Positions 6,038 through 60,514 of a DNA stretch of 64,000 nt are shown here, piece after piece; the first letter of the stretch is position 1, and every line of letters begins with the position of its first letter. Under the pieces are notes generated by a model that did not search any database, was not told where the DNA came from, and saw only the letters and a list, made by a program, of their open reading frames with translations. The position numbers and the translations under genes are program-made. The stretch is taken from positions 16,211-80,210 of the forward strand of contig MHHQ01000009.1 of NCBI GenBank assembly GCA_001817065.1, read 5' to 3'. The DNA is from Candidatus Andersenbacteria bacterium RIFCSPHIGHO2_02_FULL_46_16 (lineage in GTDB: Bacteria; Patescibacteriota; Andersenbacteria; UBA10190).

Positions 6038-6080
6038 AACACTCACAATATTCTGATTTAGATGGTTTTGAACTGGTGAT

Positions 6081-6129
6081 CCCACTGTGCAGAAAACCAC
6101 CCCGCCGCAGGCGGGGTGGGGGCTCCATT
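6081..6129 (+). repeat. Family-1 GC-rich element, short 'solo hairpin' copy
   Basis: gtgcagaaaaccaccccgccgcaggcggggtgggggctccat. Shares the 5' (gcagaaaacc) and 3' (ggggctccat) termini of the long copies at 7209 and 26478, and contains a perfect 10-bp hairpin. Confidence 0.5.
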
Positions 6130-6181
6130 AGATAATTTTAGCAGCAACGGAGCGGAAATTAGTCAGGCTGGTGATGGGGGA

Positions 6182-7042
6182 TCACTTGATTGAGTCTTTA
6201 ACTAACGCTAACGCACCATAAAATGCTCGATCGTCGCCGAGTGTGGCTGGTTTGATGACGGGTGGGGTGGGTATGAAAGAAGTAAGATTGGTGGTCGCTT
6301 TGATAACCTGACCTAGGGGGATGTCTCTCATCATGGGTCCACCCAGGACTATAACAGAAGGGGACCATAAGAAAGTGATATTGGTTAAACCGTAAGCGAG
6401 CCACTCAGCTAGTGATGACCATACTTGCGGATCCTTAATGGCTTTGGGGTGGCAATTGAATCGTTTGGCGATACTGGCACCGCCGACTAAGTCTTCGAGT
6501 GAAGAAGGGCTATGGCAGTCGGGGCAGAGAGTACCGCTGGCATCGATAATGTGGAAGCCTGGCTCAAAGCCATACGAATTAGCATCAATCTTTTGATTGA
6601 CAATGCGTGCGCCGCCAACACCGGTGCTGATAGTTAAATAGGCAACAATATCGAAATCACGGCCAGCTCCACTGCAGGCCTCACCCAGGCCAGCGAGGGC
6701 AGAGTCATTGATAATGCGAACCGGAACCTGCGTCAGGTTCTCCAGCTCTTCTTGGATAGGATGACCGATCCAGTCGCTTAAATTTGGCGAGGCGGCTAAG
6801 CGACCCGTTTCTTTATTCATGGTTCCGGGCAAGCCAACAACGACACCTTGAATCGGCTGGTCAGCAACTAGAGGAAGGATTTGGGCGGAGAGGGCAGCGA
6901 TAGCTTCGGTAAAAATTGGCGGGGTAGGGCATTTAACAGGCGGGGTAAACGCATCTGGTGAAGACGTGGTGGTAATACGTGTGTTGGTGCCGCCAATATC
7001 AAGAAAGAGAAACATGAATGTAGTATAAAATTCAAATGACAA
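6182..7042 (-). CDS. ROK-family sugar kinase (glucokinase-like)
   Basis: N-terminal LFLDIGGTNTR ATP-binding motif, GLPG, and a CPDCH zinc-motif region typical of the ROK family. Confidence 0.7.
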   Translation of the reverse strand: MSFEFYTTFMFLFLDIGGTNTRITTTSSPDAFTPPVKCPTPPIFTEAIAALSAQILPLVADQPIQGVVVGLPGTMNKETGRLAASPNLSDWIGHPIQEELENLTQVPVRIINDSALAGLGEACSGAGRDFDIVAYLTISTGVGGARIVNQKIDANSYGFEPGFHIIDASGTLCPDCHSPSSLEDLVGGASIAKRFNCHPKAIKDPQVWSSLAEWLAYGLTNITFLWSPSVIVLGGPMMRDIPLGQVIKATTNLTSFIPTPPVIKPATLGDDRAFYGALALVKDSIK

Positions 7043-7208
7043 AGTTCAAATATTCTGAAGGGATTTCCTGGGGGTAAACTTTGATATAACGATAATAAAC
7101 TTAACAAACAGAAAGGACCAGAGTAGCACGATCCTTCAAACAACGAACTCTAAAGTGTAAATGTCAAAGTTCCCTCCTTCGCTCGATTAAAAGCTAAAGG
7201 AAATTTTA

Positions 7209-7428
7209 TTCCACGGTGCAGAAAACTACCCCGCTGGTGGTGGTTGAATCAGCTGTCGCCAATGCTTTGGCCGACAAGACAAGGTGCGAATGGGATAATC
7301 CCTCGCTGCCATTCAAAGCTCCGTGAGCAAGGGAGGGTAGCTCCGCCGATAGCGGAGCAAGTGAGATTGACAGTTGGCTGCTACGCGGGATTCCGCTCCC
7401 AGTCCAGGGGGCGGGATGGGGCTCCATG
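7209..7428 (+). repeat. Family-1 GC-rich structured element, long copy A (~220 nt)
   Basis: Shares termini and an internal core (ccattcaaagctccgtgag..., gctgctacgcgggattccgct...cagggggcgggatg) with the copy at 26478-26702. Three overlapping ORF-track ORFs here are judged spurious. Confidence 0.5.
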
Positions 7429-7557
7429 TAAGTAGTGTAACGATAGGCGGGATACCCTGAACGTGCGTACCTTGAACGTGCACTTGGACGGGCACTGCAC
7501 TTGTGTATTAAGTGAGCTTAGTTATAATGATTTGATAATTATTTATATATTTAATTT

Positions 7558-23483: not shown

Positions 23484-24127
23484 TTAAGTTAATAGACGAA
23501 GTGGCACTTTAATAATAATTTTTTGCACAAAAGTAGTAGAGGGATGAGAAAAACCAGGCCGGTGGGCGTCATAGGGGAAAAGAATTGCGACATAGCGGGG
23601 CAGCATGGGAATAGATTGGGCGGCTGGTGTGGGATTGTATAGGACATAGTCTTCTTGGTCATTCCGCGAGACTGATATTAGACCGTCGACGGGAACTACT
23701 TGAATGATTTCGCTACCCGATAAACAAATATGGACATCTATAGATGTCACATTATGAAATGCCACTCTTAAATAAACGGGTGGCGGCGCGGGGGACCCCC
23801 ACCGAGCGCCTGCAGGCTGCCCGCCTGGCAGGCCGAAGCCGTCGGGTGGGGGTGCAGCGCCGACAGGGCCCGTCACTATATTTGTGGCATTTCATAATGT
23901 GACTTCCATATGTGACGCATATGTGACTCATATTTATCAGAGCTGGACTTTGTGGTGGGTATGGTTTTTAAATAAGCTTTAATGGTTGGGAGATTCGGAT
24001 TAATAAAAGTGTTGTTTTGATCGGAGAGCGGTATCTGAGTAAGCCAGGTAAAAACGGTGCGCCAAGCGGGATGTGGCAGTTGTTCATACACCTGGGCAAG
24101 GTTGTCCAGATCGCCAATGATAGACAT
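23484..24127 (-). pseudogene. YhcH/YjgK/YiaL (DUF386, NanQ-like) family gene disrupted by a MITE insertion
   Basis: The upstream fragment (24127->~23906: MSIIGDLDNL...KYESHMRHI) and downstream fragment (~23745->23484: ...HICLSGSEII...AILFPYDAHRPG...KIIIKV) together match the ~155-aa DUF386 layout (MIIG.L.NL, (E/K)xHxxYIDIQ, FFP.D.H.P, KVVVKV). They are separated by the 160-nt TIR element and lie in different frames. Confidence 0.5.
23737..23910. mobile_element. MITE family 2, copy 1 (TIR-flanked GC-rich core) inserted in the DUF386 gene
   Basis: 20-bp perfect terminal inverted repeats gtcacattatgaaatgccac (23745-23764) / gtggcatttcataatgtgac (23884-23903) flank a GC-rich core homologous to the element at 56639-56864. 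Confidence 0.5.
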
Positions 24128-26379: not shown

Positions 26380-26477
26380 TGCAGTTTAGGATTGTTGCGA
26401 ATAAGGCACTTGTCGAGCAAGGTGTGATTTTTAATTAGTGTTTGACACTTGTTTATACCAGTAAATTTTACAATTTA

Positions 26478-26702
26478 TTCCACTGCGCAGAAAACCACGC
26501 CGCCGGTGGCGGGGGTGGATGAATCAGCGTCGCCAAGGCTTTGGCAGACAAGGAATGGGATAACCTCGCACTACCATTCAAAGCTCCGTGAGTAAGTGGG
26601 GTAGATAGTTGGTTGCTACGCGGGATTCCGCTATCCCACCCAGGGGGCGGGATGCCCCGTTATCGCGGGGACCGCCCCGCCTGCGGCGGGGTGGGGCTCC
26701 AT
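26478..26702 (+). repeat. Family-1 GC-rich structured element, long copy B (~225 nt), with hairpins at both ends
   Basis: 5' hairpin ccacgccgcc-ggt-ggcgggggtgg and 3' hairpin ccgccccgcc-tgc-ggcggggtgg. Internal core shared with copy A. Followed by a further GC-rich structured tract to ~26950. Confidence 0.5.
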
Positions 26703-27031
26703 AGGTTGTAAACAAGACATTAGGCTGATTGGTATGAGCTCACAAGACTGAAATGACGCCTGGCACAGCCGGCCCTATTCGCTCATTCTCTCTCGCCCCA
26801 GCGGCTCGTTGAGAGAGGAGTTCGGCCTGGTTGCCACGCCTACGCATGCAGCCTGCCGTCCGGCAGGCAGGCTTCGGCGGGGACCAGGCCGAAAAGACCT
26901 CACAATTCGCTCCTAGCACTGGCTGTGCGATGCTGGGTTAGCTAGGTTACTCGGGTTGGTGAGTAGATAAACTGATTGTGTTGACAGCCGAATAGATATA
27001 TGGTAGTCTATTAGTGATAATAATTTACTAA

Positions 27032-41265: not shown

Positions 41266-41806
41266 AAATTTTGCTGGACAAACGAAATCTATGGGAACTT
41301 ACGGTGCTGGTTGGTGTTACGGTGTTGGCAAAGGATGTGGGGAAGGCACAGAACAAAAGGGATGGAAAAGAAAACCCCCGTGACAAATTGTCATAACGGG
41401 GAAAGAGAGCAAGGTAGACAAGTATTTTGTCTAGGGAAGGAAGATCAATAGTTTTCGGACAAAATTTTTTGAGCCTCTAGACTAAGTAGTCGGCTGTTGT
41501 GTGGGCCTGGGCCGTAAGTAGGTTCACCGAATAACCCGATATGATGGTTCGCGCATGATTGAAGGTGAACGGGAAAAGTACGAAGAGGTATTGGTTGGTT
41601 ACAGATGTTGCACGTTTGAGTTTTGTCGTCCTCACTATTGTTGCACATGAGATTCTTCCTCGAAGTTGGTGAAGGAACCATCAAGCTAAGTAAATTGTTA
41701 TTAGTGTAGCGATTAGAAAGTGACGTGTCAAAGAGGAGTGGTGGAGTGGTGGAGAAAAGTGATGTTACGCAGTGAGCGGCAATGATTTGGTAGGTGAAAA
41801 CAATTT

Positions 41807-41995
41807 TACTAAGGCGCCATCCAAAAATAACTTGGCCAGATCTCGTTCAATATGCGTCGAGATACGGCTTTTCCAATTGAGCGAACCAGGAGCCGTAGCC
41901 AAGCTACGGTGAGTGGTTCGCGATTGAAGAAAAGTCGTAGATTGGCGCATAGTGGGCGAGAGATGGTTAAGTTATTTACGGATGGTGACTAAGGC
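41807..41995 (+). mobile_element. MITE family 3 copy with 8-bp target-site duplication
   Basis: Direct repeat ACTAAGGC at 41807-41814 and 41988-41995. Imperfect ~22-bp TIRs (gccatccaaaaataacttggcc / ggttaagttatttacggatggtg). Structured core (gcgaacca-ccgtagccaagctacgg-tggttcgc). Confidence 0.55.
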
Positions 41996-45592: not shown

Positions 45593-45779
45593 GGATTTAG
45601 GCACCGCAACGAAATAATTTCTTAAGGTTTCGTTCAAGATGTGTCCAGCTATGGCTTTTTCGATTGAGCGAAATACGAGGCGTAGCCAAGCTACGGTGAG
45701 TATTTCGTGATTGAGAAAAAGTCATAGATGGGTGCAGATTGGGCGAAAGGTGGGAAATTATTTTGTGGCGGTGCCTTAG
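45593..45779 (+). mobile_element. MITE family 3 copy (diverged) between the metal-ABC ATPase and permease genes
   Basis: TIRs ggcaccgcaacgaaataatttc / gaaattattttgtggcggtgcc. Core (gagcgaaatacgaggcgtagccaagctacggtgag) homologous to the 41807 copy. Short TTAG repeats flank it. Confidence 0.5.
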
Positions 45780-56638: not shown

Positions 56639-56864
56639 CTATAGACATCACATCATAAAATGTCACTGCAGAATAAGCGGGTGGCGGCGCGGGGGTCCCC
56701 CACCGAGCGCCAGCAGCCCTGAGCCTGCCTACCGGTAGGCAGGCTTGTCGAAGGGCGATGCCGTCGGGTGGGGGGAGCAGCGCCGACAGGCCTGCGGGCC
56801 GAAGCCATAGCGAAGGCTGGACCCGTTTCTTGTCTGGTGGCTTTTCATGATGTGACACCTATAG
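56639..56864. mobile_element. MITE family 2, copy 2 (TIR-flanked GC-rich core)
   Basis: TIRs ctatagacatcacatcataaaatgtcac / gtggcttttcatgatgtgacacctatag. The core shares aagcgggtggcggcgcgggggtcccccaccgagcgcc and gccgtcgggtggggg.gcagcgccgacagg with copy 1. Confidence 0.5.
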
Positions 56865-60193: not shown

Positions 60194-60376
60194 AAGTCAC
60201 CATCCGTAAATAACTTAACCATTTCTCGCCCACTATGCGCCAATCTACGACTTTTCTTCAATCGCGAACCACTCACCGTAGCTTGGCTACGGCTCCTGGT
60301 TCGCTCAATTGGAAAAGCCGTATCTCGACGCATATTGAACGAGATCTGGCCAAGTTATTTTTGGATGGCGCCTAAG
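60194..60376 (-). mobile_element. MITE family 3 copy (inverted orientation)
   Basis: Reverse complement of the 41815-41987 element: gtcaccatccgtaaataacttaacc ... ggccaagttatttttggatggcgcc. Confidence 0.5.
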
Positions 60377-60514
60377 GAAAAAAGTGAATTATGCGACCCA
60401 ATTTTGAAGCGAGGAGGTGGGTTTGGGATAATTCAGAAAAATGGATGAACGAGGTATAGTTAAGAGTGAGTTTAATTATTTTCTTATTATGGGAAGGGAT
60501 GAAAGGAATAAATT

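Follow-up and report, generated by a model that had tools for sequence, protein, structure and literature searches.

We analysed a 64,000-nt stretch of the genome of Candidatus Andersenbacteria bacterium RIFCSPHIGHO2_02_FULL_46_16 (assembly GCA_001817065.1, contig MHHQ01000009.1, positions 16,211 to 80,210), referred to here as the window. It contains three copies of a GC-rich, hairpin-ended repeat that we call family 1, and there are at least eight copies in the species. Family 1 probably consists of fixed, decaying copies of a small gene-less mobile element of the IS200/IS605 type, a single-strand (HUH/Y1) transposition system, similar to the elements known as PATEs. It is most likely a new family of a known kind of mobile element and not a new class of RNA. 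The copies begin and end at defined positions, are absent from the corresponding loci of related species, and have ends whose layout parallels that of IS608.

Copies of the element in the window and elsewhere in the species

The copies in the window are one short copy (S) and two long copies (A and B), with the common ends CCACTGYGCAGAAAAC and GGGGCTCCAT. When the window was scanned with the 5' motif CCACTGTGCAGAAAACC, allowing up to two mismatches, matches were found at 6082, 7211 and 26480 only, and three matches were reached in none of 100 shuffles. The 3' motif GGGGCTCCAT closes the copies at 6128, 7427 and 26702, giving a distance from CCACTGTGCAGAAAACC to GGGGCTCCAT of 48 nt in the short copy and ~220 nt in the long ones. 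A preliminary description of this DNA had reported three copies with common termini here, two of them ~220 nt long with a conserved core, and the motif scans bear this out. The cores of A and B are 83% identical when gaps are ignored. The two long copies differ by the insertion or deletion of whole hairpins, with one additional hairpin in A (GCTCCGCCGATAGCGGAGC) and two additional 3' hairpins in B. In S the two ends are joined around a perfect 10-bp GC stem, CCACCCCGCC-GCA-GGCGGGGTGG, as had also been described, and the element measures 48 nt. Hairpins of the type CCGCC-N3-GGCGG occur in the window only within family-1 copies.

Copy S occupies positions 6081-6128 on the plus strand and comprises the left end CCCACTGTGCAGAAAA (6081-6096), the GC hairpin (6097-6119) and the tail GGGCTCCAT (6120-6128). 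Long copy A spans 7210-7427 on the plus strand, with its left end at 7210-7225, the extra core hairpin at 7340-7358 and the terminal TCCAT at 7423-7427. Its 5' hairpin is a remnant (7226-7243) from which 6 nt are deleted, and its 3' end hairpin is gone. The ROK kinase gene (6182-7015, minus strand) lies between S and A, as first noted. Long copy B, also on the plus strand, spans 26479-26702 and, like copy D, keeps both end hairpins. Its left end (26479-26494) closes in AAAA and is followed by the 5' hairpin (26495-26518), the core (26519-26654), a small hairpin (26655-26670), the tract GGGA (26668-26671), the 3' hairpin (26672-26694) and the tail GGCTCCAT (26695-26702).

Five further copies were located in the species. 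Long copies C (L043:4406-4621) and D (L040:3973-4199) and short copy E (L047:4979-5025) came from a contig scan for the 5' end pattern; searching for exact words of the core gave nothing real. Short copy G (L052:14081-14127) and long copy F (L052:15544-15735) lie in the 10 kb fetched past the right end of the window. C, D and E are on other contigs of the same species, and the genes beside them encode UW94, DDW41 and RIFCSP Andersenbacteria proteins. The known set is therefore at least five long copies (A, B, C, D and F) and three short ones (S, E and G). Conservation of the termini in further genomic copies had been chosen beforehand as the test of the family, and the termini are kept in all five additional copies.

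Copy G sits in the 3' end of a CTP_transf_like open reading frame (ORF; L052:13665-14129). The frame crosses the element and stops at a TAA immediately past it, and the C-terminal tail of the protein thus appears to have been replaced by the insertion. The family also marks places where assemblies end. Contig ends of the assemblies L007, L029, L030, L031, L034 and L035 map to window positions ~7326, 26479, 26689, 26722 and 26790, so that several independent assemblies break in or at family-1 copies, as expected of dispersed repeats.

The copies are insertions absent from related species

Comparison with syntenic loci of relatives indicates how the copies arose. The ROK proteins at these loci are 84, 79 and 59% identical to that of the window, and YgjP, near copy B, is 77% (L022) and 75% (L023) identical. 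At the site of copy A, the relative L014 (with the 84% identical ROK) aligns well on both flanks and has 5 nt where the window has 218 nt, a clean insertion. At the site of S, the ROK and VKOR genes overlap in L014 and L017 and the S region is absent. At the site of B, both L022 and L023 lack the element and the GC-rich island that follows it, and the sequence between the two is kept in these relatives. Copies A, S and B are thus lineage-specific insertions. No duplication is present at the junctions of A against L014 or of B against L022 and L023, and ~120 kb of relatives' DNA contained no family-1 copy by BLAST or by an nhmmer profile. Within the species, the copies are present in every assembly at 99-100% identity and are therefore fixed.

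Three other comparisons were set aside. Strain variants of A and B differ at few positions and added no structural information. Presence/absence differences of 125 nt between L047 and L048 fall at arbitrary places within coding sequence and look like assembly artefacts. An 8-bp direct repeat around S, ATCACCAG, was considered as a target duplication; it is compatible with chance and is not seen at the other copies.

The ends are laid out like those of IS200/IS605 elements

Similarity among the copies starts and stops sharply, and there are no terminal inverted repeats, since the ends YCCACTGCGCAG... and ...GGGGCTCCAT are not reverse complements. A GC hairpin adjoins the 16-nt left end, YCCACTGCGCAGAAAA. 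Copies B and D also carry a similar hairpin on the other side of the element, with the 8-nt right end, GGCTCCAT, after it. The five nucleotides to the left of the element are TTTAT in A (7205-7209), B (26474-26478), D, F and G, TTGAT in C, GTGAT in S (6076-6080, where the target-like TTTAT/TTGAT occurs in variant form) and CTTTT in E. The final five nucleotides of the element are TCCAT in six of the eight copies, TTCAT in F and GCTAT in G. TTGAT is the target motif of ISDra2. TTTAT is the transposon-adjacent motif (TAM) of ISGst2; such motifs flank IS200/IS605 elements, and gene-less PATE elements with conserved ends have been described (PMC10055086).

The ends can also be compared with the recognition system of IS608. 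In that element the left hairpin has the target TTAC 19 nt away on its 5' side, and the right hairpin has the site TCAA 10 nt away on its 3' side; each cleavage site pairs with the 4 nt that adjoin the hairpin foot on the 5' side (PMC3201880). The pairs include T-4:A-34 and C-3:G-35, with the guide GL (AAAG) pairing with TTAC (PMC3201880). We applied this rule to family 1, taking T-4 to pair with guide base 2, the base after it with guide base 1 and the final base with guide base 4. In silico it fits at both ends of B and D, with AAAA pairing to TTAT on the left and GGGA pairing to CCAT on the right. The three canonical pairs can all form, and both ends have A at position -2. The two ends therefore co-vary, TT being matched by AA on one side and CC by GG on the other. 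We take this correspondence as suggestive of IS608-type recognition and no stronger, because the boundaries of the element had been fixed before the fit was noticed.

Taken together, family 1 is like PATEs and the IS200/IS605 elements of the IS608, ISDra2 and ISGst types in lacking inverted termini and target duplications, and in having a flanking motif, an inner terminal motif (TCCAT) and complementary 4-nt tracts. In B and D, as in IS608, the subterminal hairpins stand at unequal distances from the two ends (16 and 8 nt, against 19 and 10 nt in IS608). The family is multi-copy and may share the preference for the lagging-strand template: the top strand lies on the G-rich strand, the lagging-strand template, in seven of the eight copies, and such a bias has been reported for the IS200/IS605 family (PMC5027513). 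It differs in its host, a member of the candidate phyla radiation (CPR), in the loss of one hairpin from most copies, and in an unusually GC-rich 150-nt core made of clustered hairpins; its sequence is unrelated to that of any described insertion sequence (IS). Classical miniature inverted-repeat transposable elements (MITEs) such as Correia, RUP and ERIC are likewise small, non-coding, multi-copy and intergenic, and able to supply terminators or promoters. These have terminal inverted repeats and target-site duplications, and family 1 has neither; two other repeat families of the window, described below, do have inverted termini.

The GC skew of the window is strong and uniform, at +0.25 on the plus strand in every 1-kb bin, and most of its genes are on the plus strand. 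The contig that carries copy E (L047) has a skew of -0.12 although its genes are on the plus strand.

A full-length element, as represented by B and D, would have a TT(T/G)AT flank and, on the plus strand, two similar GC hairpins enclosing a hairpin-rich core of ~150 nt, with the 16-nt YCCACTGCGCAGAAAA before the first and the 8-nt GGCTCCAT after the second. If transposition resembled that of IS608, both hairpins would be bound in single-stranded DNA at the replication fork by a Y1 transposase acting in trans. The cleavage sites TTAT and CCAT would be located by pairing with AAAA and GGGA, the four nucleotides on the 5' side of the hairpin feet, and a single-strand circle would be excised and inserted 3' of a TTTAT-like site. 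The element would have spread within this Andersenbacteria lineage after its split from the sampled relatives.

Several observations weigh against this interpretation. The agreement between guides and cleavage sites was found after the boundaries were chosen, and the probability of such a fit by chance, roughly estimated at ~1%, is not negligible. Both end hairpins are present in B and D only; A, C and F retain just the left one, and there is one hairpin each in S, E and G. Gene direction confounds the strand bias: five of the six copies examined first (S and A-E) follow a co-oriented gene, so that the two effects are inseparable. The empty sites in relatives read GTAAT (A, L014), TTAAT (B, L022) and TGAAT (B, L023) and not TTTAT; either the motif could be in part element sequence, or these sites have changed since. 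Strains of the species were not seen to differ in which copies they carry, and current activity is therefore not indicated. In the part of the genome that was scanned no cognate TnpA was found, the sole Y1 gene there (L047:1105-1779) having a different flanking palindrome, and no TnpB or IscB was seen in ~190 kb of annotated DNA of this species. Finally, no family-1 member was found outside the species in metagenome, genome or viral contigs, plasmids or phages. A 19-mer from the core had no match in metagenome contigs, and blastn gave no family-1 match in plasmid and phage collections. Two other sets of matches were dismissed: five matches of a core 18-mer in genome contigs come from unrelated phyla, show no similarity past the seed and are put down to chance, and three patterns run against viral contigs gave chance matches only, in high-GC coding DNA.

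A RAYT-like gene is present but has its own palindrome

The Y1 gene at L047:1105-1779 encodes a 224-aa protein that matches Y1_Tnp (E 4e-5). Its best match is the NCBIfam model for the repetitive extragenic palindrome (REP)-associated tyrosine transposase (RAYT), at an E-value of 1.3e-17 and below the cut-off of that model. This enzyme class is therefore present in the species. The gene is flanked by perfect palindromes, CTTTGTACGTTCCTGGAACGTACAAAG (GTACGTTCCWGGAACGTAC), and not by the family-1 hairpin. Four copies of this palindrome occur in L047 (at 993, 1041, 1799 and 6513) and none in the window. Together, the gene and its CTTTGTACGTTCCTGGAACGTACAAAG palindromes resemble a RAYT-plus-REP arrangement, here in a CPR bacterium.

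The presence of this gene raises the possibility that the family-1 copies are themselves REP-like, mobilized or maintained by a RAYT, with the short hairpin as the basic unit and the long forms as composites. The short copies are indeed intergenic GC palindromes with conserved flanking nucleotides, as in REPs, and one of them lies 3.2 kb from the RAYT-like gene in L047. REP and BIME sequences mobilized by a RAYT (TnpA-REP) also often follow genes and depend on the same enzyme superfamily. We nevertheless doubt this explanation. The palindrome that accompanies the RAYT-like gene is a different one, only a handful of family-1 copies were found against the high copy numbers reported for REPs (PMC8266576), and no inverted doublets of the BIME or REPIN kind were seen. 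The asymmetric layout, with two unlike ends and a target-like flanking motif, is that of an insertion sequence and not of a REP doublet.

A 39-nt insertion adjoins copy A (7461-7499), lies outside family 1 and is also absent in L014. It contains a tandem ACGTGC..CTTGA duplication and bears a weak resemblance to the palindrome flanking the RAYT-like gene, with an alignment score of 25 against a 95th percentile of 22 for shuffles.

Probable decay of the copies and proposed origin of the short form

All pairs of copies are 80-86% identical, and the copies are roughly equidistant from one another. Over the aligned left end and core of four copies, conservation is fairly even; the middle block and the far 3' part, each missing from one or two of the four, could not be scored. 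Equidistant copies and even conservation fit a burst of insertion followed by near-neutral decay. Under the IS200/IS605-type interpretation, substitutions and the loss of hairpin-sized pieces would account for this later decay. Copies A, C and F have no 3' hairpins, which they would have lost in this way, and the deletion lies between GCGGGATG and GCGGGGTG, a position at which slippage could cause it repeatedly. Copies D and F have the same 32-nt deletion, by which two helices are lost.

The short copies combine parts of both ends. Their left arm corresponds to the 5' hairpin and their right arm to the 3' hairpin, the arms of S matching those of long copy B. Such arms are as would be left by recombination between direct repeats, and the short form is best read as a solo-hairpin remnant of recombination between the two end hairpins; S, E and G would all be leftovers of this kind. 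The preliminary description had offered two readings, empty and filled forms of one structured element or a solo-hairpin derivative. The origin of the arms agrees with a long form that has lost its interior, and hence with a solo derivative; we do not read the short copy as an empty site.

Do the long copies encode a structured RNA?

The preliminary description also proposed a family of small non-coding RNAs. Rfam 15 gave no match in the window at gathering score, with chance-level hits only around the copies at E<=10, and ARAGORN found no tRNA or tmRNA genes. A match to a known housekeeping RNA family, the outcome named at the outset as decisive against a new element, was thus not obtained. 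We then weighed whether the long copies might be structured-RNA genes or 3'-UTR modules on the plus strand, either omega-RNA-like or regulatory, that spread by duplication and are under selection as RNA. Pairing reaches 93% in ten candidate helices and drops to 30-53% once the partners are slid, and the copies often differ by whole hairpins. Changes within stems are mostly single C-to-U changes that keep G-U pairs, with 21 G-U cells against 9 A-C cells on the plus strand. The tendency of the copies to follow co-oriented genes, noted above, would suit transcription on this strand, and PATEs often encode omega RNAs (PMC10055086).

Other observations weigh against an RNA. No compensatory change was found among 67 candidate pairs, and the covariation score was no better than that of shuffles, in a comparison of four long copies that has low power; RNAalifold reported two compensatory pairs on the plus strand and none on the minus strand. 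C-to-T is the commonest change on the plus strand, so an excess of G-U is expected there and the counts of G-U against A-C do not settle the strand. The minimum free energy (MFE) z-scores are modest (-1.6 to -2.4) and similar on both strands. There is no conserved promoter on either side of the copies, and a terminator T-run ends 3 nt before the start of copy C. The helices missing from D and F and the absence of the copies from the loci of sister species also speak against an RNA gene, as do ends arranged like those of IS200/IS605-type mobile DNA in their target motif, hairpins and guides (PMC3201880; PMC10055086). The proposal of a small RNA family is not supported, and selection for a plus-strand RNA is an unlikely account of the long copies.

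Omega RNAs (reRNAs) of TnpB and IscB deserve separate mention, since they too are structured non-coding segments of ~150-200 nt that adjoin a transposon end and are co-oriented with its top strand. The 150-nt core may be an omega-RNA-like scaffold. Two stronger versions can be formulated: the long copies could be PATEs with a working scaffold of this kind transcribed on the plus strand in the direction of the right end, taking a guide from the flank after TCCAT and serving a TnpB or IscB in trans, or the core could be a new RNA that spreads via single-strand transposition. Family 1 matches neither the HEARO nor the IS605-orfB model, shows no covariation, and is accompanied by no nuclease gene in the ~190 kb examined, and we regard both versions as quite improbable. 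If a scaffold of this type were present, its nuclease would sit elsewhere in the small CPR genome or in the host community.

A diversity-generating retroelement was also considered as a source of the differences among copies. The substitutions are mainly C/T and G/T and not adenine-specific, and this candidate was rejected.

Possible terminator activity and coding potential

Since the A4 tract of the left end adjoins the GC hairpin, the minus strand of every copy reads as a hairpin followed by TTTTCTGC. A terminator scan called both S and the 5' hairpin of B terminator-like. The site in S (6093-6119, minus strand) has 10 pairs, nine of them G-C, and the tail TTTTCTGCAC. Its hairpin begins 63 nt past the ROK stop codon, within a spacer missing from relatives, and S plausibly terminates ROK transcription as a by-product of its insertion.

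One could go further and suppose that the copies are primarily minus-strand terminators, or plus-strand stabilizers of mRNA ends, kept to insulate tightly packed genes. The hairpin and T-run on each minus strand would suit such a role, as would the position of S just downstream of ROK and between convergent genes that overlap in relatives. Only S and D, though, lie downstream of a minus-strand gene, and B, C and E face none. This proposal would also leave unexplained the 12 conserved nucleotides past the T-run, the 150-nt core, the right end and the spread over many loci, and the genome has canonical terminators of other sequence, one of them upstream of C. As the main role of the family, transcript termination or stabilization is very unlikely.

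The repeats might alternatively encode a small minus-strand protein that starts with an ATG at the GGGGCTCCAT end and stops at the flank. Copies A, D and E are open from ATGGAG to a stop at or just past the element end, and their frames start MEPHPA or MEPRPA and finish GVVFC(A/T)V. The C-rich minus strand has few stops, however, and chance alone is expected to leave long frames open. Stops or frameshifts interrupt the frame in B and C, and copies A and D translate the same central DNA differently, as APLSAEL and CSAIGGAT, in two distinct frames. This comparison of frames contradicts minus-strand coding, which we consider scarcely credible.

Other repeats in the region

Two further repeat families occur in the same region. 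Family 2 is GC-rich, has inverted termini of ~22 bp (GATGTCACATTATGAAATGCCAC) and is present at 23739-23910 and 56639-56860 of the window, with a third copy at L047:9506-9688. The copy at 23739-23910 splits a DUF386/YhcH gene into ORFs at 23876-24127 and 23484-23876, which match positions 2-68 and 67-144 of the Pfam profile; the ortholog in the relative L023 is intact, at 158 aa. A third, MITE-like family of ~190 nt has inverted termini of ~30 bp (CACCATCCGTAAATAACTTAACCATTTCTCG / CGAGATCTGGCCAAGTTATTTTTGGATGGCG) and is found at 41804-41990, 45597-45764, 60195-60381 and 1-38 of the window and at L052:14215-14425. Two of its copies are 98% identical and in inverted orientation.

The GC-rich stretch past copy B, described earlier as hairpin sequence related to the family-2 core, is real (~26740-26932). 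Compared with L022 and L023 it is an insertion of its own, specific to the lineage and outside family 1, and only the hairpin GCCTGCC..CCGG..GGCAGGCTT is common to it and family-2 copy 2 (56639-56860).

Implications

Genomes of CPR bacteria (Patescibacteria) are small and are usually called streamlined. In this one, a stretch of ~84 kb holds five copies of one hairpin-ended element together with two families with inverted termini, one of which has split a gene. GC-rich islands in an AT-leaning genome are a cue used in searches for structured RNA, and where an origin as transposon relics is known, fewer false RNA discoveries would follow. The family-1 ends offer a concrete end pair on which single-strand transposition could be tested in an uncultivated lineage, and copy S may be a case of a transposon end co-opted as the terminator of a gene.

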